From an uncultured delta proteobacterium (GTDB taxonomy: Bacteria; Desulfobacterota; Binatia; UBA9968), in the NCBI GenBank assembly GCA_963727625.1, contig CAVSHR010000012.1:224001-288000 (forward strand): DNA of 64,000 bases, in the 5' to 3' direction. The notes beneath the pieces are model-generated. The model was not told the origin of the DNA. It was given only the letters and a program-made list of their open reading frames with translations, and did not search any database. How positions within the stretch are numbered: position 1 is the first letter of the stretch; every line of letters starts with the position of its first letter. A program made the translations under genes and the position numbers. Below, piece by piece: positions 2,945 through 52,121 of the stretch.

Positions 2945-3000
2945 GCCCGTAGTCCTTATTGGGCGAATTGTGTCGCCCGTCGATTTGAAGACCGGATGAC

Positions 3001-3071
3001 CTCGCGCAAAGACGCAAAGATCGCCCCCTCCGGCATCACGTTCCCTTTTCGGCCTGTGCGACTTGGCGGGA
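3001..3071. repeat. REP-like imperfect inverted repeat
   Basis: ctcgcgcaaagacgcaaag (3001-3019) pairs with ctgtgcgacttggcgggag at 15/19 positions; intergenic. Confidence 0.5.
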
Positions 3072-3116
3072 GATAGTCCGAGCTTTGCATGCGCTTAGCT
3101 CGCACAGGGCGCTTCG

Positions 3117-14390: not shown

Positions 14391-16079
14391 TCAGAAATAT
14401 GCCTTCAACACATACTGCTGCAGCATCCGATGAGTATTGAAGAATGAACCGTTGAGTGCGATCGCGTGGCGCATCACGTCGAGATAATCGTCGCGGTTAT
14501 GGTAAAAGAGCGGCATGACGATCCGTTCGAGTTTCTCGTACAGCGAAGCGGCATCGTTGCCGCGATCTGCGCTTACGCCTGCGGTCCCGTCCGGCGGGCC
14601 GATCGACCAACCGGTAACCCCTTCGATACAGCCTTCGATCCACCAGCCGTCGAGCACACTAAAGCTAGGCACGCCGTTGATCGCCGCCTTCATGCCGCTG
14701 GTGCCGGAGGCTTCCATCGGCGGCAGCGGCGTATTGAGCCAGACATCGACGCCCGCAGTCATGATCTTGCCGATCTCCATGCTGTAGTTTTGCAAGTAGG
14801 CAATTTTAATCTTGTCGTGCAGCCGCTCGCGGGCGCGAAAGACCTTTTGAATCTGTTCCTTGCCGGCTCCATCCTGGGGATGGGCCTTGCCGGCGTAAAC
14901 GATCTGCAAACCGCTGCCCTGGGCGGCGATTGCTTTGAGCCGCTCGATATCGGTGAATAGGAGATCTGCCCGCTTGTAGGTCGCCGCTCGGCGCGCGAAG
15001 CCGATGGTAAAAATGTCCGTCTCCATGCCGACGTTGGTTTCGCGATTGACGTAATGCAGCAAGGCTTTTTTCGCCTCTTGGTGGGCCTGCCAGATTTCCT
15101 GTTTGGGAATGCTGAGCGCGTAGCGCAGGCTGCAGTTATCCTGGTGCCAGCCGGAAATATAGCGGTCGTAAAGCTGCGCCATCGGCGCCGCGGCCCAAGT
15201 CAAGGCGTGAACGCCATTGGTGATGGCGTCGATGGTGTAACCGGCGAACAAGAGTCTCGATATTTCTCCGTGCCTTTTAGCCACGCCATTGACGTAATGG
15301 CTCAGATTGAGAGCCAAAAATGTCATGTCCAAGCGATCGCCGCAGTAAAAGGCATTGCGTACCTCGTCAACCTCAGGCCGGCCGAGAATTTGATCTGCTA
15401 GCTCCTTAGGAAAGGAATCCTGCCCCGCGGGGACCGGCGTATGGGTTGTGAAGATGCATTTCTTTCTCACCGCTTGCACGTCATCGTGGGTGAAAGATTG
15501 TCTGCCGTCACGCCGAGCCTCCTCATCCAAGAGCTCCAGCGCGAGTAGACTTGAGTGTCCTTCGTTCATGTGGAACCGTTCTATCTCTTTAAGACCCATG
15601 GCGCGCAGCATCCTCACCCCACCGATTCCGAGAATGACTTCCTGGCACAACCGGTAATGCTGATCGCCGCCGTAGAGATAGTGGGTCAGGGTTCTGTCCC
15701 ACTCGGAATTTTCCGGTAAGTCGGCGTCAAGAAAATAGACCGGCACGGAGAAATCTCCCGGCCCGGCGACGTCGTATTTCCAGGCGTGGAGGGCAACCGT
15801 GCGGCCCTCGATGGTCACGGAGACCCGCTCAGGCAATTCCGTGAGAAAGTCATCCACTGCCCAGTCCACCGGCTCTTCAATCTGCCGCCCAGCGCTGTCG
15901 ATACGCTGGTAAAAGTAGCCTTTGCGATCGAGCAGCGTCACCGCCACCATCGGCACTCGGAGGTCGGCGGCGGCGCGAATCGTATCTCCGGCCAGCACGC
16001 CGAGCCCGCCGCTGTAAGTCGGCAAATCAGACACTAATCCAATTTCCATGGAAAAATAGGCGATGGCTCGCTGGTTCAT
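14391..16079 (-). CDS. glgP: alpha-glucan (glycogen) phosphorylase
   Basis: [47 protein letters not shown] (PLP lysine). Confidence 0.95.
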
Positions 16080-34377: not shown

Positions 34378-34710
34378 TTAATCGCGGGCGCTATGAGCGC
34401 GCTCTGCGCTGCGCTTTAGCTGCCGATCGAACTTTTCGTAATCGCCCAAATGCGCCCGCATCAACGATTTCCAGAGCTTTCCGTGGTGCGGTACGGAAAA
34501 ATGCAGAAGCTCGTGGACAATCACATAATCGCCGATTTTGCGGTCCATCGAAAGAAGCTCCGTGCTGAAGTTCAAGTTGCCCGCCGTCGAGCATGACGCC
34601 CATTTGCTCGACATCGGACGGACGGCGAGGGACCTCACTTTGACATCAAACTGCCGAGCCCACTCCAGAACGCGCGCCTTAAACTCTTCTTTGCTGTTCC
34701 ATCGCCTCAT
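34378..34710 (-). CDS. short M48/YgjP-like metallopeptidase-domain protein
   Basis: KWASCS..DYVIVHELLH..HHGKLW; typical position after hsdR. Confidence 0.8.
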   Translation of the reverse strand: MRRWNSKEEFKARVLEWARQFDVKVRSLAVRPMSSKWASCSTAGNLNFSTELLSMDRKIGDYVIVHELLHFSVPHHGKLWKSLMRAHLGDYEKFDRQLKRSAERAHSARD

Positions 34711-37655
34711 TTATGATGTTCCCGCCTGCTGAAGCACGCCGAAGATGGCATCGACGATCGCCGTGACCTTATCAAGATCGTCCTCTTCGGCGAAGATCGC
34801 GAAGGTGACTTTCTTTCTGAGTTCGCGCAGCTCCTTTTCACTCTGCCGCCAGTTGGCGAACTCGGCGAAGGCCGCGCGCACCTTCTTGCTGGCCATTTCG
34901 GCGTTGGCGATGCCCTCGTCGGTCAACTTGCACAAAACGAAGTAAGTCAGACCGTCGAGTCCCTTCGCCGTCTGGATTTTCTTTCGTTCGTCGTCACCTT
35001 CGATTTGCTTGATCAACTCGGCCAGGGCCTGTGCGGTGCTCTGCTGGCGATCCTCAAAACTCTCCTGGACGGCGCGCGCCCGCACCGCCATCGCTACGAG
35101 AAAAGGATCGTCGCTATTCTCCAAAGCCGTTCGCTCAATAGATTTGATCAGATTGATGACCTTGACCGCCTTCCCCTCCTCGGCTTTTTTGATGGCATCG
35201 ATGGCGGCACGATCGAGTTTCACGAATTTATCGCTCTGCTCCATGACCGCGGTGTCGATGTGTTTTTGCACCAGTTCGTTGGTTTTGCGCTGAAATGCCT
35301 TATCGACGTAAACAGTCGTGGCGTAGGCTTTTCGCACCACGGCGTAGATCGACGACAAGGTCGCATAGTCGTCCAGGAACGGCCGGAGAAAAGCGTCGGG
35401 CGAAATGATCTCGTAAAGCATTTCGATCTCTTTATATTCTTTGAAAAACTCCTTGCGCCGATCTTTGTCGCGAAAATGCTCGATCAGATTGTCCACATCC
35501 TTGTCGTTGAAGTTCTGCGTCACAAGCGCCAGGTACTCCGGCGCCTTGCTTTCCATCTTGGCCTTGAAGAGCTGCTTGAGCAGGCCGATATCTTTGACAA
35601 TCGCGTTCACTTCGTCACTGTCGAACGCCAGCGCCTTTTCCAGCTTGTCGAAGATACCGACGAAGTCGAGCACGAAGCCGTGCGGCTTGACCATCTCCTC
35701 TCGTTCGTTCTCATAGGGACGGTTCACCCGTGCGATCGCCTGCAAGAGCGTGTGGTCGCGCATGGGCTTGTCTAGATACATGGCGTAGAGGATTGGCGCG
35801 TCGAAACCAGTCAAAAGCTTCTCGGTCACGATCAAAATCTTTGGGTCTTCGCCGAATTTCGTGAAGTTCTTCCGAATTTGCTTCTCTTGCTTGTCGTCGA
35901 GGTGCCACTTTTTCATATGCGGTGGATCGTTGTTGTTGCCGGTATAAACAACAGCGGAGATACTCCGGCTTCAAGAAAGGAATCGAAGGCTTCTTTGTAG
36001 AGCGCGCACGCCTCGCGATCCACCGCCACCAGGAAGGCCTTGTAGCCTAGCGGCTCGACGTTATCGACGTAGTGAGCGGCGACATGACGGCCGACCTTGA
36101 TTATTCGCTCCCGCCCTTTGAGAAAATTCTTGAGGTTCACCGCCCGCTCGAGGATCTTATTCAGCTCTTCTATATCCGCGATCCCCTCGGTTTCGGCGAG
36201 CGCCAGGAATTCCTTTTCCATCACTTCGTGCGGCACGAGCATCTCGTTGGGCGCCAGATCGTAATAGAGCGGCAGCGTGGTGCCGTCGTCGATGCTCTCG
36301 CTGATCGAATACTTGTGCAGATAGCCCTTGTCGTCTTCGCAGCCAAAGGTCTTGAACGTTCCCTTGCCGTAAGCGGTCTTGTCCACCGGCGTCCCGGTGA
36401 AGCCAATGAACGTCGCGTTCGGCAGGCCCGCCATCAGGTAATTGCCGAGATCGCCGCCGGTGGTCCGGTGCGCTTCGTCGATCAGCACATAGATATTCGA
36501 CCTAGCGTTGATGTTTGCCGGCATGTCGCGGAATTTTTGCATTGTCGTGACAATGATCCCCCGATAGTCAGACTTGAGCAGCCGGTTTAGCTCCGCGATG
36601 CGATGGGCGTGGGCCACGTTGCCCAGCCCCACGGCCGCGAGATTCTTGAGCATCTGATCTTCCAGCTCATTGCGATCGATCATCAGCAAAATCGTAGGTT
36701 TGTCGGCCTGCGGCGCTTTGAAGAGCATCTCCGCGGCTTTGATCATCGTATACGTCTTGCCGCTGCCTTGCGTGTGCCAGATGAGGCCGCGAGAGAGCTT
36801 TGAGTCCAGCGCCCGCGCTACTACCCGGTCCACGCCCGCCGTCTGATGCTGGCGCAGCACGACCTTCTGCAGCTCTTCGTCCTTTTCGGCAAAAAGAATG
36901 AAGTCTTTCAGCAAGCGCAGCAGATGCGGCACGGCGCAAAACGTCTTGACCTTGGCTTCGAGATTGCCGATCTCTTCATGCTTCCAGCGAAAGATGTTGC
37001 GCCGGACCGTATTCCAGGTCGCGCCGTAGTCGAAACCGAGCGCCTCGGTCGCGGTGAAGAGCATCTGCGGCACCATGACCTCCGGCGTCTCGATGTGATA
37101 GCGGCGGATCTGATCGACGCCGAGCGCGATTCCTTCGTCCTTGGTCGCGTTCTTACACTCGATCACCAGCACCGGGATGCCGTTGATGAGAAAGACCAAG
37201 TCCTCGCGCGTGCCGTAGCGGCCGCTGTGGAAATAAAACTCCTCGGTGATTTCGTAGATATTGCGCCAATCGTTCCGGGACCGAGTCAGATCGCCACAAT
37301 CGATCAGCGTGATGTCCAGCTCGCGGTTGTCTTCCGCCGAGAAATACTTGTGCTGGTTGCGCAGCGCGGTCAGAAAATCGCGGTTGCCGTAGATATCCGA
37401 ATGAAATCGCTGGAATTCGCCGACCAGCGCACCCTCGGCTTCTTTGTACTTTGGATTGAAGGCACGAACCTGTGCATGCAACAGATCGCCGAAGAACAAA
37501 GAACTCTTGCGTGCCCGTTCCTCCGGCGTAGCACCCGCAGGATCAAACCCGCGCCGCCGCTCAGCCTCATCGCGCGGCACAAAGGTCCAGCCGATCTCTT
37601 GAGCGTAGGCTAAAATACGCGCCTGGACGGTCTTGTGCTCGGTCGGTCCCGGCAT
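34711..37655 (-). pseudogene. hsdR: type I restriction endonuclease subunit R, frameshifted near 35960-35980 (possibly assembly error)
   Basis: DLVFLINGIPVLVIECK, WHTQGSGKT, DEAHR, GFTGTP; second ORF has KLLTGFDAP and LLQAIARVNR. Confidence 0.9.
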
Positions 37656-37659
37656 GTGT

Positions 37660-38168
37660 TTAGTGGAACTCTTCCACTTCTTGAATAATTTCTTCCAACA
37701 GGCTGAGGCGAATGTGTAACGTTGAGGCGGTAGGAAGAGACCTCAATAAGCCAACGACTTCATCTTTTGATTTGTGTTTGCGGCGGATAGCCCGAAGAAG
37801 CACTCCAATCGTCCCATGTGTTGCCAGACCAAGGTTGCGCGCGGCCAAACGGGCCGCGGTATCGTCGGTCAGAACCAGACATCCAGGATGCGTTTGCGCT
37901 ACCTGCAAAGCCTCCTGTTCTCCGCGATGTAATCCCAGAAGCCGGCTTAACACATCAAGTTCGGTCGACAAGACTTCAGTCACCGTCATTTTGTGAAAAC
38001 GCACTGCGCTGTAGATGAGCGCAGCCGGTCGATGTTTCGCCACCTCGTCCCACACGGCTAATGGCACTAGCACTTGGGGAAAGTCTGCTAGCAACTCCAC
38101 GCACTCCACTTCATCCAAATGGATGAGGGGACCGGCATCACACACAACAATCGGTGACGTTGGGTCAT
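37660..38168 (-). CDS. PIN-domain toxin (DUF3368/VapC-like); natural ATG appears off-frame by 1 nt
   Basis: IVVCDAGPLIHL, LHRGEQEAL, LTDDTAAR, HGTIGVLL. Confidence 0.8.
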
Positions 38169-38362
38169 TCCCGGCCACGCAACCCCCAGGCCACGTCCTC
38201 CCGGATAAACGATTCGGCAAGCCGCGTAGAATGCGATTCCAGGTAGCGGCGCAGCGCCTCTGCCAACAATTCGTTGAAGTCGCTTACGGAGCCCTGCTCG
38301 ACAAACGCACGCGCTTCCTTGACTAGTTCCTCCGGCAGCTCAGCCTGAATTGCAGTTTTCAT
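38165..38362 (-). CDS. RHH/CopG-type antitoxin
   Basis: MKTAIQAELPEELV..LLAEALRRYLE; stop overlaps the toxin 5' end. Confidence 0.75.
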   Translation of the reverse strand: MKTAIQAELPEELVKEARAFVEQGSVSDFNELLAEALRRYLESHSTRLAESFIREDVAWGLRGRE

Positions 38363-38391
38363 AGATTTGCCTTTCCTAAACACATCCAGGT

Positions 38392-38769
38392 TTAGCGCGC
38401 CAAAAGTTCGGCGTCGCGCTGTTCAATACGCGAGATTAGCTCGCGCAACACCTGAGGCATTCTAGCCTGGAAGACTTCCGTGCCGCAAATTCGCTCAGGC
38501 CCGAAAAGCGCCGCATAATGCAATATCCCGTCGGCATGGACACTCACGGACAAAGTCTGCCGAGTCGATCGATACCATTCGAAAGTCAGCACCCCATCGG
38601 GCTCGGCACCGACCTCGGGGGCAGGCAGAGCGGAGTCGAGCGCATCGGCAAAGGCGCGCGCGCCCGTCACTGCCGCAACCGTTACGGCCTTCGCTCCGTA
38701 GCCGTCCCACCCCGCCACATTGCATTCCAAGGCGACCTCATCGATTTGTCGTCTAAGTTCCGCGTTCAT
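38392..38769 (-). CDS. hypothetical protein (WDGYGA...PDG...EW motif)
   Basis: 125-aa ORF co-oriented with the R-M operon; function not recognised. Confidence 0.6.
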   Translation of the reverse strand: MNAELRRQIDEVALECNVAGWDGYGAKAVTVAAVTGARAFADALDSALPAPEVGAEPDGVLTFEWYRSTRQTLSVSVHADGILHYAALFGPERICGTEVFQARMPQVLRELISRIEQRDAELLAR

Positions 38770-38864
38770 TGGATTATCTGTCTACGGCAGACTCGGCCAT
38801 TTTCATTGTGCTTTGATCAGAGCCCAACTCAGACCAGTTTTGTATTCGCCGGGCGAGGGCATGC

Positions 38865-40001
38865 TCAGGGTTTATCCTCAATGGCTTCTTTCACCACAGC
38901 CAGCAATTGCCGCTCGCTTGGCAGCTTGCCTTTGAGTGCCTTCGGCAGCTTCTCGGTCAGGTGATATTCCGCTACGCCGATGGGGTTGGTCTTCGACTTG
39001 AGGGAGAACTCTACCACGACGTCGTCTTTCTCTGCGCAGAGGATAATACCGATGGATGGATTGTCCCCAGGACCGCGCTCCTTTTGGTTGAGCAGATTGA
39101 GATAGAAGTCCATCTTGCCCGCATATTCCGGCTCGAATGCTCCGACCTTCAATTCCACAGCCACCAGCGCCTTGAGAAAGCGGTGGTAGAACAGCAAATC
39201 GATGAAATACTCCTTCTTGCTCAGCGCCAGCCGATGCTGGCGCCCGATGAAACAGAACCCGTAGCCCAGTTCGAGAATAAAATCCCGCAGCCGCTCGATC
39301 AGCCGGTCCTCCAGCTCCCGCTCCTTCACTTCACGCCGGATACCCAGGAACTCCAGGTTGTAGGAGCTCTTGAGTGCCTCCTCCGCCTGCTCGGCCAGAT
39401 AGTCCGGCAGGACAGCCGGGAAGTTATGCGTCTTGCCCTCCGCCAGCGACCGTTCATAGGCCTTGGCCTTGATCTGGTTGAGCAGCACGTTGCGGCTCCA
39501 GCCGAGTTTCGCTGCGGCCCGGAGGTAGTAAAGACGAGCCCGAGGTTCTGCAATCCTCTTGAGAATAAGCAAATTATGTCCCCACGGAACGGCAGCGACC
39601 AGGTGCGCAGCCCGTTGCTCCGCGACTTGTAAATCTGGAACAGGCTGTCCCAGATTTTCGGCGCTTCCCAGCTCCGATTCTGTTTCTGGGACAAGCTGTC
39701 CCAGAAATTCAGCTTCAGTGTAAGCGGCATAGAGTTGCCGCATTCGCCAGAGATTGTCGGGAGAGAAGCTGTTAGTCGAAGGAAACTCTTTGGTAAGATC
39801 CTTGGCGAGTGTTTCCACGACGGCTTTCCCCCAACCAAGATGGGCCTGCCTCTCCAGAATTCCTCGCCCGATGTCCCAATACAGAAGGATCAAATCCCGG
39901 TTCACCGCCCGCGCCGCGGAAATACGCGCGGATTGAATACGGCTCTTCAGCTCGGTGACAAACTCGGCATATTCATGGGTCGATGGGAGCTTGGTCTTCA
40001 T
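38865..40001 (-). CDS. YhcG/DUF1016 PD-(D/E)XK nuclease-like protein
   Basis: YWDIG..WGKAVVETLA, LELGYGFCFIGRQ, IDLLFYH, ELK, GKMDFYL, IGIILC. Confidence 0.92.
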   Translation of the reverse strand: MKTKLPSTHEYAEFVTELKSRIQSARISAARAVNRDLILLYWDIGRGILERQAHLGWGKAVVETLAKDLTKEFPSTNSFSPDNLWRMRQLYAAYTEAEFLGQLVPETESELGSAENLGQPVPDLQVAEQRAAHLVAAVPWGHNLLILKRIAEPRARLYYLRAAAKLGWSRNVLLNQIKAKAYERSLAEGKTHNFPAVLPDYLAEQAEEALKSSYNLEFLGIRREVKERELEDRLIERLRDFILELGYGFCFIGRQHRLALSKKEYFIDLLFYHRFLKALVAVELKVGAFEPEYAGKMDFYLNLLNQKERGPGDNPSIGIILCAEKDDVVVEFSLKSKTNPIGVAEYHLTEKLPKALKGKLPSERQLLAVVKEAIEDKP

Positions 40002-40204
40002 CGTTGCTCAGAAACTCCAACAGCCGTTGGAGAATTTGACGACAGGCTGCTGCCAACTTCTCTCAGAGGCTGTGAGAGAAGTTCTTGCACACCCTGCGCG
40101 AGAACTTCGTCCCAGTCAAAATCATGGACCCGAATCTGCGTCCACATCAACTGCTGCAACGAATTGCGCGACTGGACGGTCTTGTATTCGGTGGGATTAG
40201 CCAT
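39998..40204 (-). pseudogene. chimeric remnant: HsdR N-terminus fused to HsdS C-terminus
   Basis: MANPTEYKTVQSR resembles HsdR MPGPTEHKTVQAR; RNSLQQLMWTQIRVHDFD resembles HsdS RTLLHQLMTAQIRIRDID. Confidence 0.7.
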
Positions 40205-40373
40205 CAGTTGAGCCGAACCCATATGTCCACGTCTTGGACACATTTCTGGGATACGTCCAAAAAACTGGACTTTTTGAACATATCCCGTTCCCGCCGCATC
40301 AGGGCGTTGATAGCCGGTTCAGAGATTCGACTGTCGTTCATCCTTATTTCGCCGGTGCAAACAGGATCTTATC

Positions 40374-41777
40374 TCAGCGCCATGTTTGGTGCCAAGCCTG
40401 ATACTCCGAGGGGCGCAGGCGATAACGGGCAATATTCCCCTCGTGAAGACTCGTCAGCTCAGCTTCGACCACCTCAATGAAACGTGCTCGATCTTCCTCC
40501 GACACCCGGTCGGCAGCGCGGCGCTTGATGAATGCGGCTGCGTCCTTCTTATTCATCCCGCCGCGAACAACCGCGGCGACTATTTCAATCATCACAGAGC
40601 GGTAACGCAAACGAAACGGGTCAGGTTCGCCGAGTGATTGGCGCACCGCTGCGTAGCGGGCACTTGAACGCTCGTAAGCCCAGACAAAAACGTCGCGCAG
40701 CAATTCAACGCGATTTAACTCGTACACTGCGAGGAGGCCATCGATGTAAGCCCGCTGCGGCACATCGATGAACGACAAAGGTGAAAGATTTTGCCGGATA
40801 AGCGGGATATTGGCGGCCAGTCGTGAAACCCGTTTATTCACGTCCTCGAACGGTTGCAGATACGGCAAGTGAACCATCACAAAGAACCCTTGCTCAAATG
40901 GATCGGTAATGGCGGCGGCCGTATCCAGAATTTGCTGGAAGCATTCTTCGACTGACTGCGGCACTTCCAAGGGGTGATAGCTCGATCCGTCGATTCCAAC
41001 GGCAATCGCGCGCAGTCGTCCGGTGGCCCGCGAATCGGCAAGCAAGTTATCCGACAGGAGCGCATGCAGGTTGAGAATGGTGTAGCGGTTGAAGCCGATC
41101 TCGGCGGCCTGCTCGACCAATAGCTCTATGGCGGCTTTGTGATTCAGAATCATTTGCGCTTCGCGCGCATCTTTACCGTCGGCGCTCTCTCCCAGTTCAA
41201 GCAAACGCTCGGTTTCAAGCAGCGAGTACGTGTTGCCTTCCAGGCGGCTCGAGTTCCATGACAGGTCGATGAGCAGACGATTAAGATCTGCCGCGCGTAC
41301 GTTCCCGCCGGACGCTCACCGCCCGAAGATCGTCCGAAGCCTAAGAGATGTCGCCGGGTTTCGGCGGACAGGTAGAAAGTTTCGTTGGGCCGATAAGCGT
41401 CGAGAAATTCACGGCGATATCCGACCAGGCTGACGGTTTTGAATCGGCTGGCGAACGATTTTTTCAATAGCTTCGCCCGTCGGTGGAAAGTGGGATTCGA
41501 AGCTCACTACGACCCTCTGCTTTAATTTCAATCGTCGCCTCACCTCGTCCTTCCGCAATTCTGGGGAGGCGATAGCGGCTTGCGCGACCGCGTCCTTCAA
41601 TTATTAGCTTGCTTTTGTTTGACAAGTCTGCGCCAAACGTCGCTGCAGCGTGCGGTGCGGCAGTCCTTGAGTGCAAGGGCGAGAACGAATTTCTTCGACC
41701 GAAGCGCCTTGCGGAAAAGCTGGCCACCGCGGCGAGAATGGCCTGTCGAGATCCTTCTTGGGCGACTGTTTCGGCAT
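40374..41777 (-). pseudogene. Fic-family protein, multiply frameshifted in the 5' half
   Basis: HLPYLQPFEDVNKRVSRL Fic motif variant; 5' fragments GYRREFLDAYRPNETFYL and LPHRTLQRRL in shifting frames. Confidence 0.8.
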
Positions 41778-41791
41778 CAGGGCCTTCGTTA

Positions 41792-41879
41792 GTGGCGCGA
41801 TTTTAAAATCGCGCCACAATCGCGCCACATAGATCGTTTTATGGCGCGATAGTATTATCGCGCCACTTAAAGTGGCGCG
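41792..41879. repeat. array of six (G)TGGCGCG(A) half-sites in inverted pairs, probable operator
   Basis: Perfect 26-bp palindrome gtggcgcgattttaaaatcgcgccac at 41792-41817, plus further copies at 41818-41828, 41842-41865 and 41872-41879. Confidence 0.75.
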
Positions 41880-42029
41880 CAAGACCTTATAGTGTTGGCA
41901 GATCTGCTAATTAATCTGGATAGACGGGCTTGGATGAAGTCCAACGATATCTCAACAAAGCGGTTTTTTTCGACATATTCTCGACGCAAGCATGTCGTTA
42001 GGCAAACGCCCGTTACAATTCGTCTGCAT

Positions 42030-42243
42030 GGCAAGTTCTCGATCTCCGACGACAACTTCGCTTCCTGCAAAACCATCGCGTTGATCAAAACGCCCTGATT
42101 CGGAATCAAATCCCCCGCGCCCTTCAGCTCCGCCAGCGCCTTGTTCGCAGCGATCGCTTTCCTCAGCACCGCTTTCGTTTCAAGCTCCGCCTTCGGCGGC
42201 AGCAGCGGAAGATCGTTGTATGGCTTATCCGGATAAAAGGCAT
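42030..42243 (-). pseudogene. Fic_N-domain remnant of a second Fic protein
   Basis: PDKPYNDLPLLPP..ALAELKG..IPNQGVLIN..LQEAKLSSEIEN, then truncated. Confidence 0.8.
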
Positions 42244-42306
42244 CAGGACATTTCTTAAAAGTACGTGCGAACTCAATTTTCGTTTTATGTGAAGCTAAGT
42301 CTGTCA

Positions 42307-44063
42307 TCACATCATGCTGAATCCCCAATCCTTCCACTTCTGCACGTGTTTGTCGAAATGAGCGGCGGGAAGTCCTACGACGAGGAGATGTCGAGCACGA
42401 GTCATCGCGACGTACGCCACTCGTCGTTCCTCAGAACTTACTCCCTTGGAGACCGAATCGACAACCGCATTGAAGAACTTAGCGGAGCCAAGAACCAGTA
42501 CGGCGTCGATACTCTCGCCTTTGACTTGATGGATCGTCTCTTGCCGTATCGGCGGAAAGAGTGTCTGACCGACGAAGAGGGGAAGCTCCATTTGACTGAC
42601 GTCGAGCCCCGTCTTTTTCTGATCTTTTGACCAAGATTAGGGACCTCCTTGATGCCAAGCTCGGTTATCAGCTTTCCAACGCCGTGGCGAAGTCGCGAAA
42701 TCCATTCGCTCCCATTCAGGCTCACTGATGGAAGACCGTACGGGGACTTTACGAAACGCCAAATGGCTAGCTTCACTCGCGCAGCCTCGTCGGATTCGGG
42801 CTGCTCATCGACTTTCTCCCAGAGGTCAGAATCTTCAACTATCGAGCGCACCGAGCTCTCGACGATCTGGAAGGCTCGCTTGTATTCCTTTCGGCAATCG
42901 CGAAAGAACGATGCTTGGGCGAGGTCTTTGGTTTGGCCTTGTAGGTCGGTGTAGTTCACCTCGCCACGGATGGATTCGAGCTGTTGGTGTGCTCTACATA
43001 AAATTGCACTTGTCGCTTCATCGATTCCGGCTCGTTCGAGTGCCCGTTGAAACTCTGCAATGCTATGTGCAAATCCTTTTGTAGGCTCCCTGATGACGAT
43101 GGGCCGTCGGTGCTCATTCTTGCCATCCCCGCATCCGGCGAAGGAACTATTCCCGCCGATGTTGCGAACTGCTGACGGCAATACATTGTTGCACCTAAAG
43201 GACTGGGGCGAAGTGGCTTCTCAGGGATAGTCCATTTGTTTCTGAGCGCTGGGAGCGAGGTAGCATCAGCCATGCTGAACTCGTAGATGCACTGATCTGG
43301 GTCGCCGATAAGCGCAATATTGGTTCCCTTTCGCGGAGAAAGTTAAGCAGGATCAGCAGCCACACGTTCGTATCCTGGGCTTCATCAACGATGATTTCAG
43401 GGAACCGCCTGGCGATCAGTTCCGCGATGTGGGGGTCAAACAGGACGCGGCATGCCCAGAAGACGCGCTGTGCGTGCGTATAGAACCCAAACTCAGAAGT
43501 TCTTTCATTGGGTTGTAGCCTGCGAACTGGAGCTTGTTCCCTCCGAACGTTTTCGAGGCCCTGAAAGCGACTTTGCCATTGTCTGGATATGGAATGATCT
43601 CCCATGCTGGAACTTGACGTTTTTTCCCTCCTTTCAACTCTGTCCACATTATAAGCTTCTTGTTGTTCCAGTCTCCGGGGCTGGGAGCAATGAAGAGCTT
43701 TGGGCGTTTTGACGAGCCAATAATCAGATGTCCAAATGGCGAGAGAATGAAGCGCTCAACGAAGGCATCGAACGTGCCGACGAAATTTGGGGTCGGATAA
43801 AAGGTCGCGTCTTCCAACCTCTATTGTTGCTTCGTGGAACTCCCGAATGGCTGCATTAGTGAAAGAGAGGAGTCCGAGACCACCTGCAGCATGTGACCAG
43901 TTCGCACCGCGCCAGATAAAACGCCGCAAGATGTCCACGTTTTTCCGCTTCCCGGCGAGGCCCGGAGGAGAAACTCCAGCTCCTCAGCAAATATCGCGTC
44001 CTTCTGTTGGTCGGTCGGTTTCTGAGACAGGATTTGATCCCGCAGCGTTTCCAGCTTGTTCAT
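42307..44063 (-). pseudogene. UvrD/Rep SF1 helicase (GajB-like), several frameshifts
   Basis: ASPGSGKT, LSFTNAA, GTFDAF, IIVDEAQD, TIHQVKGES, YVAMTRA spread over shifted ORFs. Confidence 0.82.
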
Positions 44064-44070
44064 TTTTCAT

Positions 44071-45758
44071 TCAGGTTTGATTACGCCCAAGAATTGTTAG
44101 AGCCGCCAGAATGTAACTTGGAGCGGCTTCGGCTTGTAACCCGGAGGTTTCCAGCAGTGCAGCCAGTTCCTGGGCGAAGCGCCCTTTCGAAGTCCTCGTG
44201 TTAAGGAACGCAGCAAGGAACACGTCGGCTTTCTTGTCGTCCGAATCTAGCCCACCGACAGCTTCTTTTAGGGCTTTTCCATTAATTGGATGCATAATCT
44301 CAAAAGCTTCGAGATCAGCGGTAGAATACCAGCAGAACGCGCGAGTTCATGTTCAAAGGTGATCTCTGAATACTCTACCCGCAGGTTGGGAATATCCGCT
44401 TCCTTCGCCTTCAGTCCGGTGGCGGCAGCTGAAGGTGAATCACCAATCTTAGCGGCATCACCGTCAGTCAAAATCGCTACAGGGAAGCCTAGCCGTTTCT
44501 CTCCGAACAGGGGCAAGAAGGCGTTAAAGTTAAGTCCATCGGCGTTGAGCACGGTGACCGCTGATTCTTTGAGGGACCCGCCCGCGAGCTTTGCAAAAAC
44601 TGGTAGAAGAAGGGCTTCGGCGATGCCTTCGACCATAAGTATTCTACGGGCGAAGAAAAGCTCTCCACGGGTAGCGTCGAGAAACCGCTGGAGCTTCTTC
44701 TTTAGATCCCCTTCCATCTCGATGGTGCAAACCGATACAGCGCTCACCTTGCCATCGCGCTCGTGAACCGAAACCATCGAGTCAATCGGTGCTTGGCTCG
44801 CTAAGATCGGGGAGTGACTGCTCGCTATCACCTGAACTTCATTGCCCCCCTCTTCTGCAGCGACGTTCGCCAAGTGGCGCAGGAGAAGCACTTGAAGCTG
44901 GGGATGAAGGTGGGCTTCGGGTTCCTCGACGAGGATCGAACGAAATGAAAACTGAGCGCTTCGCCGCAAGGTTCCAAGAGTAGCGGCGGTGAACACTAGA
45001 TTGTTGTAACCGAGACCGTTGAGCGAGAACGGGAGCCCTTCGATTTCAGGCTGAAGTCCCGCGATGATTCGGTAAAAGGTGGGATCGCTGAAGATCAGTT
45101 CCGTCTCCTGGGCAAGCTCTTCGCCGGCGATTGAGGCCATCTGAGCGTTGATGTCCTTCCTCGCATCGACGACGGGTTTCAGTTCTCGAATCTTGTCGTT
45201 AGCATCCTTCGCAATAGCTTCGAATTGCCCTTGTTCGGCCTCGTCCGTGAGGCAGTCAACGAGGCGTGATACTTGGGAATGCCTACCGGGCCGAAGGCCG
45301 CTTTCTGGATCTCTGAGAGGCTGGAGATAGATTGACGCAAAGCGGTCATAGAGCTTTGAAGGTATAGTGCCGCTCTCCGTCTCGCCTCCCCACATTTTGA
45401 CATTCGGCCTACGCGTGGTTTTATTGAATTCGACGCGCGCATTCAGCCGCATCTCGAACTTACCTTCTCCAATATCGACGAGACACTCTTGAAAATAAAC
45501 TTCGTCTTCGTCAGTGAGGTGACAAAAAGCGCATGAGATTTCGATTGGCGCGTAATCCGTGCCGTTCCTGAAATCGTCTTCGTTGAGGCGAAGAGCATCG
45601 AAGTCGCGGCTCGAAAAGAGCATGAGACGCAACGCGTCGATGATCGCTGTTTTTCCTGAGTTGTTCTCTCCAACCAGTACGCAGAGTCCGCGCGGGAGAC
45701 TGACAGTAAGGTTTTCGATCTTCCGAAAATTTCGAATCTGGAGTTCTCGCAGTTGCAT
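44071..45758 (-). CDS. OLD-family ATP-dependent nuclease (ABC ATPase + TOPRIM; GajA-like), frameshift near the 3' end
   Basis: GENNSGKT, NGLGYNN, VEEPEAHLHPQ, SSHSP, VEGIAE, TDGD, TFEHEL, SKGRFAQELA. Confidence 0.88.
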
Positions 45759-45776
45759 AGGGACTGGCCATCCGAA

Positions 45777-47092
45777 TTAAGTTGAATAGGAGGGCACGTG
45801 CTTCGTCACGTCTATGTCACGAATCCGAATCTGTGCCGTCATCAACTGGTGGAGCAGGGTCCGGAAAAGGTCGAGTAAGTGTTTCCCGTTTTTCTTCGAG
45901 GATCTGAAGCTTTCGCCCGACAAGATGAAGATAGTGAAGAATCTCTTCTTGCTCATCCAAGCGAGGCAAAGGGAGCAGCACTCGTTTCAAGGTACCTGAG
46001 TTAATGTTGAACTTTCCGTCGGCGGTGCGAATGGCCTGACCCGCTAAGAAACTACGGCCGCGTTCAGTCCCTGCATATTCATTCACAAATTCAGGGAGCA
46101 CTTTCGATAAATCAACGCGAACCCGGATAAGATAGGACGCGAAATAGCACTCCTCAAGTTCCCTACGGAAAAGCGCGCATCGTCCCGCGTTTTCCAGCAC
46201 GCCATTAGTTCGGACGAAAAGCAAATCACCGTCGCGCAGCCGCAGCGCCTCCAACTCCGTTCGTTTTGGTAGACCGTGCTTGAGGTCTCGGAGATCAATC
46301 GACCCACCCACAACATTCGGAATGCGGAGCACTGGGAACCCGGCTTTACCTCGCTCGCATTTCACGGAGGTGCCGTAGTCAAACGATAGAGATGTATTCT
46401 CCAGCGTGGCAACCTCCCAACTCTCCGGCACGGGGCCGATTTCGGTTTGTTTTTGGGGTTCGCCGCGGAGGCCTTCGGTGAAGAGTTTGTGGAGAAGCGC
46501 CTTTTTCAGTTCCGTGGTCAGCGCGATCAGCCGCTCCTGCTGCTCGATCGCCCGCTGCACCAGCCCCAACACCGCCGCAATCTTTCGCTGCTCACCAGAG
46601 AGGTGGAAAGGCAGTATTGAACTCGCGTAAACTGACCCACGATTGCGGGGATGTTGCACGCCGGATGTCGTCGCTTTTGCGTGGACCGTGAATCGTCCGA
46701 TATGCGTCAGAACACATATGAACTGGCTGAGAAAGTGCGGACATCTCGCGCTTCGCGCGAACACTAAGAGATCCGTTGAGGCAGAACACGGACGTCCGCG
46801 ATCTACGATCACGGATTTACGTCGGTAAGACGAAGATTGAGCGAAGAGCGATATCACCGCCGCAAAACGATGTCTTCCCGACCTGTGCCGGGCACTCGCG
46901 AACGGACTGTCGCCAGTCCCACCAGACGTCGGTCAGTCGGAATTCGAAGTACAAGCCGAGATCGTGACCCTCGCTCATCCGTTGAAGCGCGTAGGCCGCA
47001 TCGTGGACTCGCAGATACAAACGTCAGCGGAGCGAGCTTGCAGTCCAGTCGTGAGCGTGCCGATCTAACCGTTTCAACCAAAGTCAGTTCAT
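45777..47092 (-). pseudogene. hsdS: type I R-M specificity subunit; 5' TRD heavily indel-corrupted
   Basis: EQRKIAAVL..LKKALLHKLFTEG..QTEIGPVPESW, LPRLDEQEEI, RTLLHQLMTAQIR. Confidence 0.85.
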
Positions 47093-48654
47093 TATACCGC
47101 AAGTTGAGTGCAAGCATTTCTTCGAGCATAGCGTCGGTTCGCTTTCGATACTTCGTCTTCAAGTCATCCAACTCCTCGACAATTTCCAGCAATCGGCCGG
47201 TATTCGTCTGCTTCACCCGTGTGGATATAGCGACTCGGCGAAATGTTGAAGTCGTTCTTGGCGATCTCTTCGCGCGTGACGATGCGGCTGAATTTTTCTT
47301 CTTCGCGCCAAGATTTGAAAGTCTCGGCGATGCGGAGGATCGCGTCGTCGGGTAGATAGTTTTTCGGGTCGCCTTTGGCGAATTCGCGACTGGCATTGAT
47401 CAGAAAGAGTTTGCCTTTGCGGTCGTCCGGCTTGGCGTTATTTAAAAAGAGGATGATGCCCGGCGCGGTGGTGTTGTAGAAGAGATTTTCCGGCAGGTAG
47501 ATGACGCCTTCGATCAGGTCTTGCTCGACGAACCATTTGCGCACGTCTTTTTCTTTGTTGGTGTTGGCGTTGCCGGAGCCGCGGGAGGCGGCGCCGGTGT
47601 CGAGGACGACGGCGGCGCGGCCTGAATCATTCAGACTCGCGAGCATGATTTGCGCCCAGCCCCAGTCGGCTTTGCGGCCGGGAAATCCGGCGCCTTTGGG
47701 GAAGCGGTCCAGCTCGTCGTTGTCGTAGTCGGTTTCCTTCCACCAGTCCTGGTTCCACATCGGATTGGCGATCACGCGGTCGAAGGTCTGGAGGCGATTG
47801 GCTTTGCGGAACTTGGGATTTTTGAAGCTGTCGCCGATCTCGATCTGGCCCTGCATGTCGTGGATGATCATGTTCATGTTGGCCATGGCCCAGGTTTCCG
47901 GCGTGTACTCCTGGCCGTAGAGCTGGAGCGGCGCGTAGGTTTTGCGCGAGCGAAGATTCATCTTCTCTTCGAGCGCCAACTGGCACTTGATGAGCAGTCC
48001 CGCCGAACCGCAGCAGGGATCGTAAACGGTCATCCCCGGCTCGGGGTCGAGGATGTGCGCCATGACCATGCCGACTTCCTTGGGCGTGTAGAATTCCCCG
48101 GCGCTCGACACGCTGCCCTCGGCGAACTTGCGGATGAGATACTCGTACGAGCGACCGATGATGTCCGCCTCGACGTCGTTCAGCCCCAAACGCTTCTCGC
48201 TGATGCGCTCGATCAAATTCGATAGCCGATCGTCGTCGAGATCGCGCACACCGTGGGTGGTGGCGTTGAAATCGACCCGGTCGATGATTCCTTTGAGCAA
48301 AGAATTCTCATCGGCGATGTCGCGCAGCAGGGTCGTCAATTGCTCGCCGATCTTATCGGCCAGCTTGCGAATCACCGACCAGACGGAATCGTCGGGATTC
48401 TTCGGCTCCAAGGGCAGGAAGAAGCGAACCAGCTTCTTGTCGTGCTTAACGAGCTTAAAAGCCTTGGCCCGCGAGCCGACTTCCTTGGCGATGCGGTTCA
48501 ACTCATCGTCGAACACATCGCAGAGCCGCTTGGCGAAGATCAGCGGCAGGATATATTCCTTGTACTTCGGCGCGTCCTTGGCGCCGCGGATCGAACAGGC
48601 CGCATCCCAGATCCACGATTCGAGAGATTTATCGCCGTTGCCGTTAATAGCCAT
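47092..48654 (-). CDS. hsdM: type I R-M N6-adenine methyltransferase; frameshift in the last ~30 codons
   Basis: GEFYTP, YDPCCGSAG, YGQE, ANPMW, ENLFYNT. Confidence 0.93.
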
Positions 48655-48740: not shown

Positions 48741-49307
48741 TCATTTGATATGCCGCAACGCGGCATCGAATTCATCCACGTCGAACTCCTCCGGGTCGAA
48801 TTCGCCGCCGATCCAGTCGAGATATTCATCGTGTTCCTCATGGTCGGGATCGCGGATCGCCGCCAGAAAGTTTTCGTAACCGCCGGTGCCGCCGCAATCC
48901 TCCGGCGGGCAGGCGCGGGCGCCGCCGATGCAGCGCGGATATCGGACACCGGCCTCGGGCGACAAAATTTTCTCGAGCAAGATCCCGTGCTCCCAGCCGT
49001 CGCCGAAGTCGTATTCGTAAACGATCTTTCGTTTCGGACTCGACAGAACCTGGCTGAGCCGGGCTTTTTTTTCGTCTTTGAGGTCAACGCCCAAGAAATC
49101 GTCCTTGCTCGGGACGCCGTAATAGGTTTTGCCGACGATAAACTGATGCAGATGGGAATCATACCAGCCCATGGCCACCTGGATGATTTCGTGCAGCTTG
49201 GCGAGGGTGACATCGCCGCTGACTTGTATCCGGCGCCAAATGGGAGGCCGCGTGTATCTCAGTGAAATCTTGAGCTGATAAATCTCCTGCGAATGGACGC
49301 GTTTCAT
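48741..49307 (-). CDS. plasmid pRiA4b ORF3-like protein
   Basis: PPIWRRIQV, LHEIIQVAMGW..HLHQF, YEYDFGDGWEH, ACPPEDCGG. Confidence 0.9.
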   Translation of the reverse strand: MKRVHSQEIYQLKISLRYTRPPIWRRIQVSGDVTLAKLHEIIQVAMGWYDSHLHQFIVGKTYYGVPSKDDFLGVDLKDEKKARLSQVLSSPKRKIVYEYDFGDGWEHGILLEKILSPEAGVRYPRCIGGARACPPEDCGGTGGYENFLAAIRDPDHEEHDEYLDWIGGEFDPEEFDVDEFDAALRHIK

Positions 49308-49655: not shown

Positions 49656-52121
49656 TTATTCGCGGGTCGGCGTTTCCTGGATCAACAACCCCGCCCGCCG
49701 CGTGTCGAAGATCCGGTACGCCGCCAGCTTGACGCGATCGTTTACGAAGAACCACGCCAGGGCATAGCCCCACACCCCCAATGCCCAGCCCCAGCCGATC
49801 GCCGGCATCAAGATTCCGTACACCGCCAGAAGCGTGGCGACAAGCTGGGTTCCCATCACCGCAGCGAGCAGAACCCGCGCCGGGCGTGTTGACCAAAAAG
49901 GACCGCGGGTTCGAGTCACAAAAATCGTCAAATGGCCGGCCACGGAGAGCTTCAAGTACATCAACGATTGGATGGTATCACGGTCGAAATGAAAAACCCG
50001 CTCGCCCAGGTAAAATAAACCGAACGAAGCGAGCACTCCGGCGACGCCGAGCACGGTCGCGATTCCCAGCACCACCGGCATGTTCCAGGCTTCGGGCGCG
50101 TTCGAGTAACGCACCTGATCATAAGCGATGGATAGGATTGCGCCGTCGTTGAGCAACGCCAGCAAAACGATCATCACCGCGGTTACCGGATAAAAGTCGA
50201 ACACCAGGATGGATAGGGTCATGAACAACAACACGCGGATCGTTTCGGCGATACGATAGATCGCGTAGCTGTTCATGCGCTGGAAGATTTTGCGGCTTTC
50301 CTTGATCGCGTCGATGATGACCGACAGGCCGGGCGTCAATAGGACGATATCCGCCGCCGCGCGGGCCGCGTCGGTGGCTCCGGATACGGCGATGCCGCAA
50401 TCGGCCTTTTTTAGCGCCGGCGCGTCGTTGACCCCGTCGCCGGTCATGCCGACGATATGGTCACCTTGCTGCAGAACGTCAACAATGTGGAATTTGTGCT
50501 CGGGAAAGACCTGGGCAAAGCCGTCCGCTTTCTCGATGGATTGCGCCAGCTGCGCAGTCTCATGATGACGAGTATCAGCGAAACCGCCGGCGTCTAAAAT
50601 GTTAGCGCCCATTCCCAGTTGATCGGCGATTTCTTTGCCGATGGCCAGTTGATCACCTGTGACCATCTTCACCTTCACTCCCATCTGCCGCGCCATGGCG
50701 ATGGTCGCTTTGGAATCCTCCCGCGGAGGGTCGAAGAGCGGCAAGATCCCGAGAAATTGCCATTGTCCTTGGTCGTCGGTGCGCGCAACCCCCAACGACC
50801 GAAAGCCGCGCGCCGCAAAGTCCTCGATCGCTTTGTCAACGGCAGCGCTGGTCTCGGCAGCATTCGCGGCCAACGCTTGAATCACCTGAGGCGCGCCTTT
50901 CGTGACCTTGAACTTCTTGCCGTCCCGGCTCTCGACTGCGGCTTCGGTGCGCTTGTGAACCGGATCAAACGGTTGAAAATGAATGACGCGATAGCCCTGT
51001 AAGCTTTGATCATCTCGGACGCCGCCAAGAACCGCCAGGTCGATGGTGTCCTGACTTTCGGCGCGGGACGCCAACGCAGCGGCGAGGATGATTTCTTCAC
51101 CGCTGACGCCGTCCACGACGAAAGGCTCTCCCAGGGTGAGCTTGTTTTGCGTCAACGTGCCGGTCTTGTCCGAGCACAGGACGTCCATGCCGGCGAGCTC
51201 CTCGATGGACGCCAGCCGGCTGACAATGGCCTGCTTTGCGGCCAGCAGCCGGGCTCCGACCGCCATTGTCACCGATAGCACTGTCGGCATCGCCACCGGG
51301 ATCGCCGCCACCGTCAGCACGAGCGCGAATTGCAGGGTGGTCGCCATGGGGTCGCCGCGGAACAGCGCGACGGCGAGGATTAACACCACCAGCGCCACCG
51401 CCAAGACGATCAAGTAGTCGCCGATTTTCAACACGGCGCGCTGGAAATGACTGACGGTGTGCGCCTGCTCGACCAGCTGCGCGGTCTTGCCGAAGTAGGT
51501 ATTCTGACCCGTGCCGTAAACCAACCCGTCAATTTCGCCCTGGCGAATAATCGATCCCGAATAAGCCGTTTCGCCGCTCTTTCGCGCGACGGGCAGAGAC
51601 TCGCCCGTCAACGCGGACTGATCCACCTCCACCGGATCGCCTTCCAACAAGCGCGCGTCCGCCGGGACGATGTCACCGAGCCGTATGTGAACGAGGTCCC
51701 CAGGCACAATCTCGCGGGCCGGGACGATCATCCACTTGCCGTCGCGCTTCACCCGCGCTTGTAATGCGAGCTTGGCTTTCAGCGCCGCGATCGCATTGCC
51801 GGCTTGAAATTCCTCCCAAAATCCGACGATCGCGTTGGCCACAAGCAGCATGAGGATGATAAAGAAATCGGCCCAGTGACGCACCAATGCCGAGAGAATC
51901 ACTGCCGCTTCAATCATCCAGGGAATCGGACCCCAGAAGTAGAGCAGGAACTTGAGAACAGAGTTGACTTTTTCTTCGGTAATTTCATTCGGGCCGTATT
52001 TTTGCAGGCGGGTTTGCGACTCCGTCGAGCTCAGCCCGTTTGGACTGGACGCGAGCGTCTTGAACAACTCAGGGAGTGAAACTTCCTTCGCTTCTTCCGC
52101 GGCCAATGGTGCGGCCTTCAT
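49656..52121 (-). CDS. plasma-membrane-type proton-efflux P-type ATPase (type IIIA)
   Basis: WGPIPWMIEAA, IPVAMPTVLSVTMAVGA, CSDKTGT, FDPVHKRT, FAQVFPEHK, LLNDG. Confidence 0.93.
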   Translation of the reverse strand: MKAAPLAAEEAKEVSLPELFKTLASSPNGLSSTESQTRLQKYGPNEITEEKVNSVLKFLLYFWGPIPWMIEAAVILSALVRHWADFFIILMLLVANAIVGFWEEFQAGNAIAALKAKLALQARVKRDGKWMIVPAREIVPGDLVHIRLGDIVPADARLLEGDPVEVDQSALTGESLPVARKSGETAYSGSIIRQGEIDGLVYGTGQNTYFGKTAQLVEQAHTVSHFQRAVLKIGDYLIVLAVALVVLILAVALFRGDPMATTLQFALVLTVAAIPVAMPTVLSVTMAVGARLLAAKQAIVSRLASIEELAGMDVLCSDKTGTLTQNKLTLGEPFVVDGVSGEEIILAAALASRAESQDTIDLAVLGGVRDDQSLQGYRVIHFQPFDPVHKRTEAAVESRDGKKFKVTKGAPQVIQALAANAAETSAAVDKAIEDFAARGFRSLGVARTDDQGQWQFLGILPLFDPPREDSKATIAMARQMGVKVKMVTGDQLAIGKEIADQLGMGANILDAGGFADTRHHETAQLAQSIEKADGFAQVFPEHKFHIVDVLQQGDHIVGMTGDGVNDAPALKKADCGIAVSGATDAARAAADIVLLTPGLSVIIDAIKESRKIFQRMNSYAIYRIAETIRVLLFMTLSILVFDFYPVTAVMIVLLALLNDGAILSIAYDQVRYSNAPEAWNMPVVLGIATVLGVAGVLASFGLFYLGERVFHFDRDTIQSLMYLKLSVAGHLTIFVTRTRGPFWSTRPARVLLAAVMGTQLVATLLAVYGILMPAIGWGWALGVWGYALAWFFVNDRVKLAAYRIFDTRRAGLLIQETPTRE

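Follow-up and report, generated by a model that had tools for sequence, protein, structure and literature searches.

Partial hsdR and hsdS ends border defence units in the hsdS-hsdR slot of a type I restriction-modification operon

The window analysed here is a 64,000-nucleotide (nt) stretch of DNA from an uncultured delta proteobacterium (contig CAVSHR010000012.1 of assembly GCA_963727625.1, positions 224,001 to 288,000; coordinates below are those of the window). It carries a type I restriction-modification (R-M) operon in the order hsdM, hsdS, variable slot, hsdR and M48-type peptidase gene. The slot holds at least four end-to-end units: Gabija; a SoFic fragment with a Fic gene; yhcG; and p125 with an RHH-PIN pair. 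The PADLOC defence families GajA, GajB, SoFic, PDC-S04, PDC-S02 and PDC-S70 all lie between 45777 and 37655 on the minus strand, which is that of the operon, and form a defence island embedded in it between hsdS and hsdR. Two of the unit borders retain short ends of hsd genes, here called stubs: an hsdR 5′ start after a unit and an hsdS 3′ end before a unit. The features of the region, including open reading frames (ORFs), are as follows.

48741-49307, minus strand: PRiA4_ORF3-family gene (Pfam, E = 1e-73), directly upstream of hsdM
47164-48654, minus strand: hsdM (Pfam N6_Mtase and HsdM_N), 3′ end out of frame from ~47205
45777-47100, minus strand: hsdS, main frame 45817-46932, out of frame at both ends
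44071-45758, minus strand: gajA, OLD-type ATPase and Toprim (Pfam AAA_15 and OLD-like_TOPRIM; PADLOC GajA)
42307-44066, minus strand: gajB, UvrD-like helicase, as stop-to-stop ORFs (Pfam UvrD pieces; PADLOC GajB)
41867-42337, minus strand: N-terminal fragment of a SoFic-type gene (Pfam Fic_N only; PADLOC SoFic)
40374-41503, minus strand: Fic-family gene, PADLOC candidate PDC-S04, in ~3 frames
40218-40285, minus strand: 68-nt double-hairpin element (nhmmer), within a 45-codon ORF (40204-40341)
40166-40204, minus strand: hsdR part of stub2, 13 codons of an hsdR 5′ end (MANPTEYKTVQSR), identical to the P0015 N-terminus
39998-40165, minus strand: hsdS part of stub2, 3′ end of a long-tailed allele, its stop overlapping the yhcG ATG
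38865-40001, minus strand: yhcG, DUF1016_N and YhcG_C PD-(D/E)XK nuclease (Pfam; PADLOC PDC-S02), intact, 378 amino acids (aa)
38836-38862, minus strand: stub1, 9 codons of an hsdR 5′ end (MPSPGEYKT, matched to family N-termini); ORF stop at 38803
38392-38769, minus strand: p125, intact 125-aa protein, no Pfam or PADLOC match, tblastn matches in 14 related loci
38165-38362, minus strand: small 65-aa ORF, putative RHH-type antitoxin by reading of the sequence, intact
37660-38178, minus strand: PIN/DUF3368 gene with GTG start, intact (PADLOC PDC-S70; weak Pfam match only)
34711-37655, minus strand: resident hsdR in two frames, 35913-37655 and 34711-35916 (Pfam HSDR_N, SWI2_SNF2 and T1R_D3)
34378-34710, minus strand: YgjP-like (M48-type) metallopeptidase gene (Pfam), last in the operon

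The resident hsdR starts at ATG 37655 and begins MPGPTEHKTVQAR. A preliminary description of this DNA had placed two more copies of this start upstream, at ATG 38862 and ATG 40204, and both are found there, on the minus strand like the resident gene. Stub1 begins 2 nt past the yhcG stop and reads MPSPGEYKT, followed by unrelated sequence up to a stop at 38803. Stub2 consists of MANPTEYKTVQSR fused in frame to NSLQQLMWTQIRVHDFD, and its TGA overlaps the yhcG ATG as ATGA. In a chance test of the window (six frames, 100 dinucleotide shuffles, best score per shuffle), stub2 scored 48 against the hsdR start (shuffle maxima: mean 30.1, standard deviation 2.8, top 40) and again 48 against the hsdS end (mean 27.4, standard deviation 3.1, top 37), confirming the described fusion of an hsdR start to an HsdS end at the yhcG start codon. 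Stub1 scored 27-28 in this test, not above chance (mean shuffle maximum 30). A hidden Markov model (HMM) of the first 110 HsdR residues gave stub2 only 9.4 bits and missed stub1; because it misses short stubs, a prefix-scoring matrix with decoys was used instead. This position matrix, made from 114 family N-termini, gave stub1 33.2 bits and stub2 40.7 bits.

Both stubs match existing N-terminal variants of the family: MPSPGEYKT is the exact N-terminus of six of the 120 listed HsdR relatives (P0002, P0003, P0005, P0009, P0010 and P0049), and MANPTEYKTVQSR is that of one, P0015. Of the first 28 nt of stub1, 25 are shared with the hsdR start of L028, as counted on the alignment. The hsdS part of stub2 comprises a conserved block and a long tail. 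It shares 77% DNA identity over 166 nt with an hsdS stub that precedes yhcG in L072, and its start aligns with the tails of full HsdS proteins directly preceding yhcG in four related loci (L028, L044, L049 and L053). Judged by sequence, stub1 and stub2 are genuine hsdR 5′ ends from other alleles of this type I family, and the proposal that such stubs represent hsdR and hsdS termini held across the family. The likeness of stub2 to the HsdS end stands as well, with the qualification that the end of the real HsdS (LLDLFRTLLHQLMTAQIRIRDIDV, stop at 45777) is only reached past a +1 frameshift near 45876.

A survey of related loci places the window slot in context. HsdR has thousands of relatives, with 7,730 matches at E <= 1e-20 among 8,000 candidates that were scored. 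Leaving aside the window protein itself, the best 119 are 79-92% identical and come from sources named as Bacillota, Pseudomonadota, Acidobacteria, Deltaproteobacteria and others. A contig scan with HsdR residues 1-580 yielded 365 relatives, of which the best 80 were taken with 10-kb flanks (L001-L080). HsdR identity across these loci is 67-90%, the operon backbone is ~80-90% identical across many phyla, and a YgjP-like gene lies 3′ of hsdR in 75 of the 80. A complete interval from hsdS stop to hsdR start was available for 52 loci (50 automatically; L064 and L069 were set by hand).

Within this conserved backbone, defence genes occupy a hypervariable site, the hsdS-hsdR slot. All but one of the 52 intervals are filled, with lengths of 1,008-8,913 nt; L015 is empty, with a 2-nt gap. 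Together with the window, the intervals hold 189 ORFs of at least 60 aa that fall into 108 clusters, nearly all on the operon strand. Pfam and PADLOC matches identify the cargo as Gabija, SIR2-HerA, a SIR2 gene adjoining a short pAgo, ThsA/ThsB (parts of Thoeris), Kiwa, PifA, GmrSD, ABC-3C, YhcG, RhuM, Fic/SoFic, HipA, DUF6119, a RloB-AAA_21 pair and toxin-antitoxin pairs. A transposase/integrase-type gene occurs in one of the 52 intervals (an rve gene of an insertion sequence (IS), in L063).

The stub scan of these intervals used the prefix-scoring matrix, with reversed-sequence decoys of which none reached 12 bits in the scanned intervals. We identified hsdR 5′ stubs in 17 of the 52 loci (16 by the matrix and L004 by the HMM), all on the operon strand and 9-109 codons long; L039 and L064 contain two each. 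Extra hsdS 3′ ends are present in seven loci (L004, L008, L019, L040, L063, L064 and L072), none of them scoring below 19.3 bits, while the best decoy reached 15.1. In the window, L004 and L008, an hsdR stub is fused directly to an hsdS end. Stub-bearing intervals have a median length of 4,865 nt, compared with 1,816 nt for the remainder (Mann-Whitney p = 1.9e-6). Multi-cargo loci, which the preliminary description had proposed to check for stubs, do keep them: stubs are present in 15 of the 19 intervals that measure at least 3.4 kb and in 2 of the 33 that are shorter.

Stubs cluster in the hsdS-hsdR slot. The matrix gave 18 hits in 163 kb of intervals, while 1,039 kb outside the intervals contained, besides 65 resident starts, three clear stubs (L011, L017 and L071) and four weak ones (15-17 bits). 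The L071 stub (5644-5898, ~70 codons, with an RHH gene before it) lies downstream of the M48 gene, and L063 carries a Fic gene (14966-15868) downstream of its operon; relics and cargo are thus not confined to the slot. A different rearrangement was observed in L031, where hsdR starts at codon ~47. Upstream of this gene, the initial ~50 codons of hsdR lie inverted together with an hsdS end (2203-3370, and 3646 onward), a pattern that resembles an inversion of which one end fell within the hsdR 5′ region.

Many of the units that stubs separate also stand alone elsewhere. The cargo order is ThsB-TIR, stub, RhuM-PDDEXK in L004; PifA-like, stub, GmrSD in L008; SIR2-HerA, stub, p125, hsdS end, RhuM in L019; PHP-AAA, stub, YhcG, stub, Fic in L039; Gabija, stub, hsdR in L046; and SMC-like, stub, SoFic, hsdS end with stub, DUF1186-PDDEXK in L064. 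In L024, DUF6119 is followed by a stub, with a Fic gene further on. Among these units, SIR2-HerA stands alone in five loci, GmrSD in two, DUF6119 in one, Gabija in two (L051 and L070, as sole cargo), YhcG in four and RhuM in two. Stubs follow their cargo at the same distance as hsdR does (2-3 nt for yhcG and 20 nt for DUF6119). Extra hsdS ends lie 5′ of yhcG or RhuM, and both of these genes lie directly 3′ of hsdS in single-unit loci. The order of units varies, with Fic before yhcG in the window and after yhcG in L039 and L072.

The yhcG unit illustrates this correspondence. The preliminary description read it as a complete slot, [hsdS 3′ end]-yhcG-[hsdR 5′ start], from another allele, and hsdS-yhcG-hsdR is indeed the sole-cargo arrangement of L028, L044, L049 and L053, with a gap of 2-3 nt between yhcG and hsdR, as in the window, and, in L028, the same ATGA overlap of hsdS stop and yhcG start as between stub2 and yhcG. 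Further cargo that it had named is found in related slots: in addition to Gabija as sole cargo, a Fic gene lies immediately before hsdR in L024, L039 and L068, and RHH-PIN lies directly before hsdR in L069 and L080, as the window pair (38362-37660) does.

Relaxed constraint on the stubs is indicated by the invariant motif, which persists in 5 of the 14 stubs that are at least 15 aa long compared with 59 of 67 resident genes. Ten stubs are nearer to the hsdR of other loci than to their own. L069 displays an empty-slot-like hsdS/stub junction followed by a 370-nt hsdR 5′ repeat (94.6% identical), RHH-PIN and hsdR, an event that looks young. RHH-PIN-hsdR is also present, at 95% identity, in L080, another contig from that bin; this contig begins 6 nt before the RHH gene and the donor side of the joint is therefore missing. 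L001 and L080 are independent contigs that both start only a few bases from the RHH gene preceding PIN-hsdR, which may be an assembly break where upstream content differs among strains.

The resident genes belong to a type I R-M system. HsdM matches Pfam N6_Mtase (E = 6e-92) and HsdM_N and is 88.6% identical to the L003 protein, alignment to which reveals an extra base after ...EYRPIA. HsdS has two target-recognition domains, a central region and the conserved C-end; its central region and second domain are 76.5% identical to L013 HsdS, its first domain is 50-52% identical to L007 and L027 HsdS, and its first ~75 codons are out of frame. HsdR contains Pfam HSDR_N, SWI2_SNF2, ResIII and T1R_D3 domains and is 91-92% identical to P0002, relative to which its frame changes at residues 566-570 (near 35916-35960); it also has indels relative to L001, and its relatives are 980 aa long. 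In the sequence as given, hsdM, hsdS and hsdR each carry frameshifts, so that the three intact genes which a potentially active system would need are not all present.

Frameshifts also affect part of the cargo. Gabija is represented by adjacent gajA and gajB genes (PADLOC GajA, E = 2e-134; GajB matches on four fragments). The gajA gene consists of a 496-aa ORF with its C-terminal piece in another frame (44071-44346) and gajB is broken into at least six frame pieces, which makes Gabija activity doubtful. The SoFic fragment covers positions 11-70 of the 361 in the PADLOC SoFic profile, and the same arrangement of SoFic fragment and Fic gene is found in L072. Intact relatives of the Fic-family PDC-S04 gene are 463-516 aa long. 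Frameshifts hence fall in the hsdS-proximal half (hsdM, hsdS, Gabija and Fic) and in hsdR, while yhcG, p125, the RHH-type ORF and the PIN gene are intact. They represent either real local gene decay or consensus error in a strain-variable region. An 821-aa ORF near the frameshifted genes (49656-52121), read from the sequence as a putative P-type ATPase-like protein, is intact. The PRiA4_ORF3-family gene has no counterpart in the related loci save a weak match downstream of hsdR in L064. A promoter and terminator scan gave counts no higher than in shuffles, and an Rfam search of window positions 34.0-49.5 kb returned zero matches.

The p125 gene of the window (38392-38769) corresponds, alone, to the middle gene of a three-gene unit, u265-p125-u140 (~260, 160 and 140 aa). 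This unit lies directly 3′ of hsdS in eight loci (L009, L025, L027, L035, L041, L043, L055 and L072). All three genes were identified in seven of the eight; the middle gene of L027 was detected by tblastn only. Representatives of the three genes have no Pfam or PADLOC match, and u265-p125-u140 is a candidate new defence unit.

A second kind of border feature is a 68-nt element that consists of two hairpins, with TGTCCAA...TTGGACA occurring twice (nhmmer E = 4e-18). In addition to the copy at 40218-40285, the window contains a weak second copy at 41927-41983. We identified further copies in L003 (8716-8783), L019 (7766-7833), L063 (8253-8316), L064 (7157-7241) and, three times, in L072 (3123-3189, 8623-8689 and ~5460-5510). 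The element is always intergenic and at unit borders, and it occurs in 5 of the 17 stub-bearing loci and in 0 of the 35 stub-free loci (Fisher p = 0.0024). A consensus fold was obtained from seven copies, with little covariation (4 of 24 pairs), and Rfam has no match to it. It may act as an operator or a terminator, or may be a small repeat.

The preliminary description had treated the ORF at 40204-40341 as a 45-codon coding remnant (MNDSRISEP...WVRLN). This does not survive comparison: the ORF overlaps the conserved hairpin element present in five other loci, and its matches in related loci are only short, palindrome-derived and on both strands. It is probably the 68-nt element and not a remnant of a gene.

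An in-frame insert near hsdR codon ~230 of L039 (~7579-8340) encodes an IS200-like Y1 (HUH) transposase domain (Pfam Y1_Tnp, E = 4e-9); the gene with this insert remains a single open frame of 1,263 codons. Inserts of similar size (~720-880 nt) are present in the hsdR genes of L060, L067, L069, L075 and L078. A link between this insert and the 68-nt element was sought, and the two were found in different loci.

We think it probable that units from other alleles of the same locus were stacked between hsdS and hsdR, without an integrase or fixed site. Sequence comparison supports stacking because the stubs are termini of the family, single-unit loci exist, long intervals keep stubs and transposase/integrase-type genes are limited to 1 of 52 intervals. 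Each unit would derive from another allele of the type I locus. One crossover in the conserved hsd backbone would supply homology, and the other end of the incoming DNA would be joined illegitimately near the slot border, so that resident cargo would be retained rather than replaced. Later deletions would trim useless hsd pieces to cargo-proximal ends, leaving the stubs as decaying relics, and no integrase or fixed recombination site would take part. The joints are illegitimate, rather than site-specific or homologous, because breakpoints vary and the joined sequences are unrelated; stub lengths of 9-109 codons likewise imply that no fixed site is used. Homologous exchange, by this account, is inferred for the conserved hsd genes. 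The earlier proposal of stacking by recombination at conserved hsd termini is thus upheld as regards stacking, but the joints themselves are illegitimate, and homology would act elsewhere. Its description of an 'integrase-free cassette array' fits the near absence of transposase/integrase-type genes from the intervals, but the array should not be taken for an integron-like one, and neither a recombination site nor cassette mobility is evident in it.

Several observations weigh against stacking from other alleles. The crossover and illegitimate joint are inferred rather than directly visible, zero near-identical pairs of genomes before and after an event were found, and the junctions are too diverged for microhomology to be read. 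Remnants of hsdR and hsdS are always short, and trimming or a border-specific process must therefore be assumed. Four stubs are closest to the hsdR of their own locus (L058, 90%; L064, 93%; L069, 96%; L034, 86%), which fits local duplication or gene conversion, and the L007 stub is weak (18.9 bits). The many frameshifts of the window could mean that the consensus is poor in a region where strains vary. Every one of the 80 loci is a metagenome-assembled contig, the set comprises only the best 80 of the 365 relatives, and a search of a plasmid collection with the first 110 HsdR residues gave zero matches. In L022 (7631-9998), two slot ORFs have distant type I methylase-like and specificity-like PADLOC matches; these perhaps belong to another, unrelated modification module that serves as cargo.

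A similar pattern could arise by collapse of tandem operons, in which the locus once comprised two to three complete type I operons in head-to-tail order and the intervening hsdR, M48 gene, hsdM and hsdS were deleted save their ends. Deletion from one hsdR to the next hsdS would yield exactly the fusion observed in the window, L004 and L008, and progressive deletion between selected cargo genes would leave cargo-proximal ends. The intermediates of such a collapse are missing, however: none of the 52 intervals contains an hsdM, hsdR 3′ half or YgjP piece of the window's type I family, all stubs end within the first 109 of ~980 hsdR codons, and no second hsdM of the same family lies within 10 kb past the M48 gene (L029 has one hsdS-like match). 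We regard this origin as unlikely. Retention of the stubs because they are useful, either as short leader ORFs handing translation on to the cargo gene that follows or as homology arms by which units could later be lost and gained, would account for in-frame hsdR-hsdS fusions that end at or overlap the next start codon (window and L004), for the ATG or GTG kept in 16 of the 18 matrix-detected stubs of related loci and for repeats spanning 183-370 nt in L058, L064 and L069. We give this idea little credence, as the conserved residues decay (the motif comparison given above), the start codon is lost in L018 and is TTG in L003, frames differ in L008, and stubs of 27-39 nt are in our judgement too short for efficient homology.

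Site-directed movement of cassettes, with a recombinase or HUH-type enzyme acting on hairpin sites and the 68-nt element as the site, draws on the association of this element with unit borders in the window and five stub-bearing loci and on the Y1 transposase domain within L039 hsdR, with its similar-size inserts in five other loci. Yet 12 of the 17 stub-bearing loci are devoid of the element, the loci with transposase inserts differ from those with the element, the stub breakpoints range over 9-109 codons, the intervals are free of integrase save the one IS in L063, and the hairpins covary little (4 of 24 pairs); such a mechanism seems very improbable. Hardly any probability attaches to an assembly artefact, a chimera of the alleles of several strains joined at conserved hsd ends. 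The metagenomic origin of the window and all related loci, the many frameshifts of the window locus and the start of the L001 and L080 contigs at the RHH gene, read as an assembly branch point, are compatible with a chimera. But the hsdR start and hsdS end share no repeat for an assembler to cross, the stubs are diverged and truncated rather than clean repeats, and the pattern recurs in 17 independent contigs, which include the 3.57-Mb L063, the 1.53-Mb L064 and, with its weak stub, the 'chromosome' record L007.

Stacking of units from other alleles bears on an open question, namely how defence islands are built up and by what means defence systems travel when no mobile element is obvious. The mechanism of stacking is only partly resolved. 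The islands examined here appear to hold their own record, in that hsd relics mark each acquisition, and in about a third of the related loci these stubs separate units found alone elsewhere. Stubs thus offer a simple sequence signature for delimiting defence units, including the u265-p125-u140 trio, and allow events within an island to be ordered. Annotation would also benefit, since small 'hypothetical' ORFs at unit borders are hsd relics. More speculatively, the hsdS 3′ end and hsdR 5′ end may serve as portable homology arms that make the slot an integrase-free platform for capture and exchange. Defence systems would then cross phyla as [hsdS end]-cargo-[hsdR start], could be stacked, reordered and looped out through stub repeats, and might share the 68-nt hairpin as a control or recombination element; we consider this extended scheme doubtful, though conceivable.

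Embedding of defence genes between hsdS and hsdR is already published. In the available parts of these reports, PrrC is embedded between hsdS and hsdR of EcoprrI (PMC12707154), TgvAB of Vibrio VPI-2 and RloF (cf. the Campylobacter Rlo genes) are embedded in type I R-M systems (PMC11411939), and DarTG2 occurs with an M48 gene in the RptR island of enteropathogenic Escherichia coli (EPEC), at a site called 'a potential recombination hotspot' (PMC12255303). Frequent embedding in type I R-M systems has been described as 'guilt by embedding' (bioRxiv 10.1101/2024.01.29.577857); the text of this preprint, without supplements, has 0 uses of 'recombination', 'remnant', 'truncated' or 'hsdR'. As far as the accessible portions of this literature go, published embedding shares with the window its place, strand, operon layout and the M48-type gene after hsdR, and its cargo likewise consists of known or candidate defence families. 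It comprises one unit per operon with no arrival footprint, whereas up to 4-5 units with hsd stubs at their borders are found here. Our literature searches (without supplements) identified no report of hsd-stub footprints between embedded units, and hsd stubs at unit borders were not found described.

Partial hsdS copies within type I loci are also known from phase-variable hsdS shufflons and invertons (PMC7672463); in the sections consulted, these are inverted hsdS halves recombined by an invertase with a change of specificity. The window slot instead contains direct, non-functional hsdS 3′ ends that adjoin cargo, and no invertase.

The slot resembles integron arrays in its co-oriented, promoter-less units with one direction of transcription and in content that varies among relatives. 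It differs in that there is no intI (zero recombinases among the ORFs of window positions 34.3-49.3 kb), no attC-like site at each border and no constant breakpoint. A recurrent palindrome is present at one window border, with a weak copy at a second, and the other borders have hsd stubs or nothing. The units here are whole multi-gene systems, and their borders carry fragments of the neighbouring hsd genes in place of recombination sites.

Defence hotspots flanked by conserved genes occur in phages P2 and P4 and in chromosomes. The hsdS-hsdR slot is similar to these in its conserved flanks and the rapidly exchanged defence cargo between them; here, in contrast, the flanks are subunits of one defence operon, and partial copies of the flanks pile up inside.

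Homology-facilitated illegitimate recombination has been described for naturally transformable bacteria. By analogy, this process, in which one homologous anchor and one illegitimate joint add foreign DNA beside the anchor, resembles the mechanism proposed here, and it would yield a resident hsdR stub joined to a donor hsdS end or to donor cargo.

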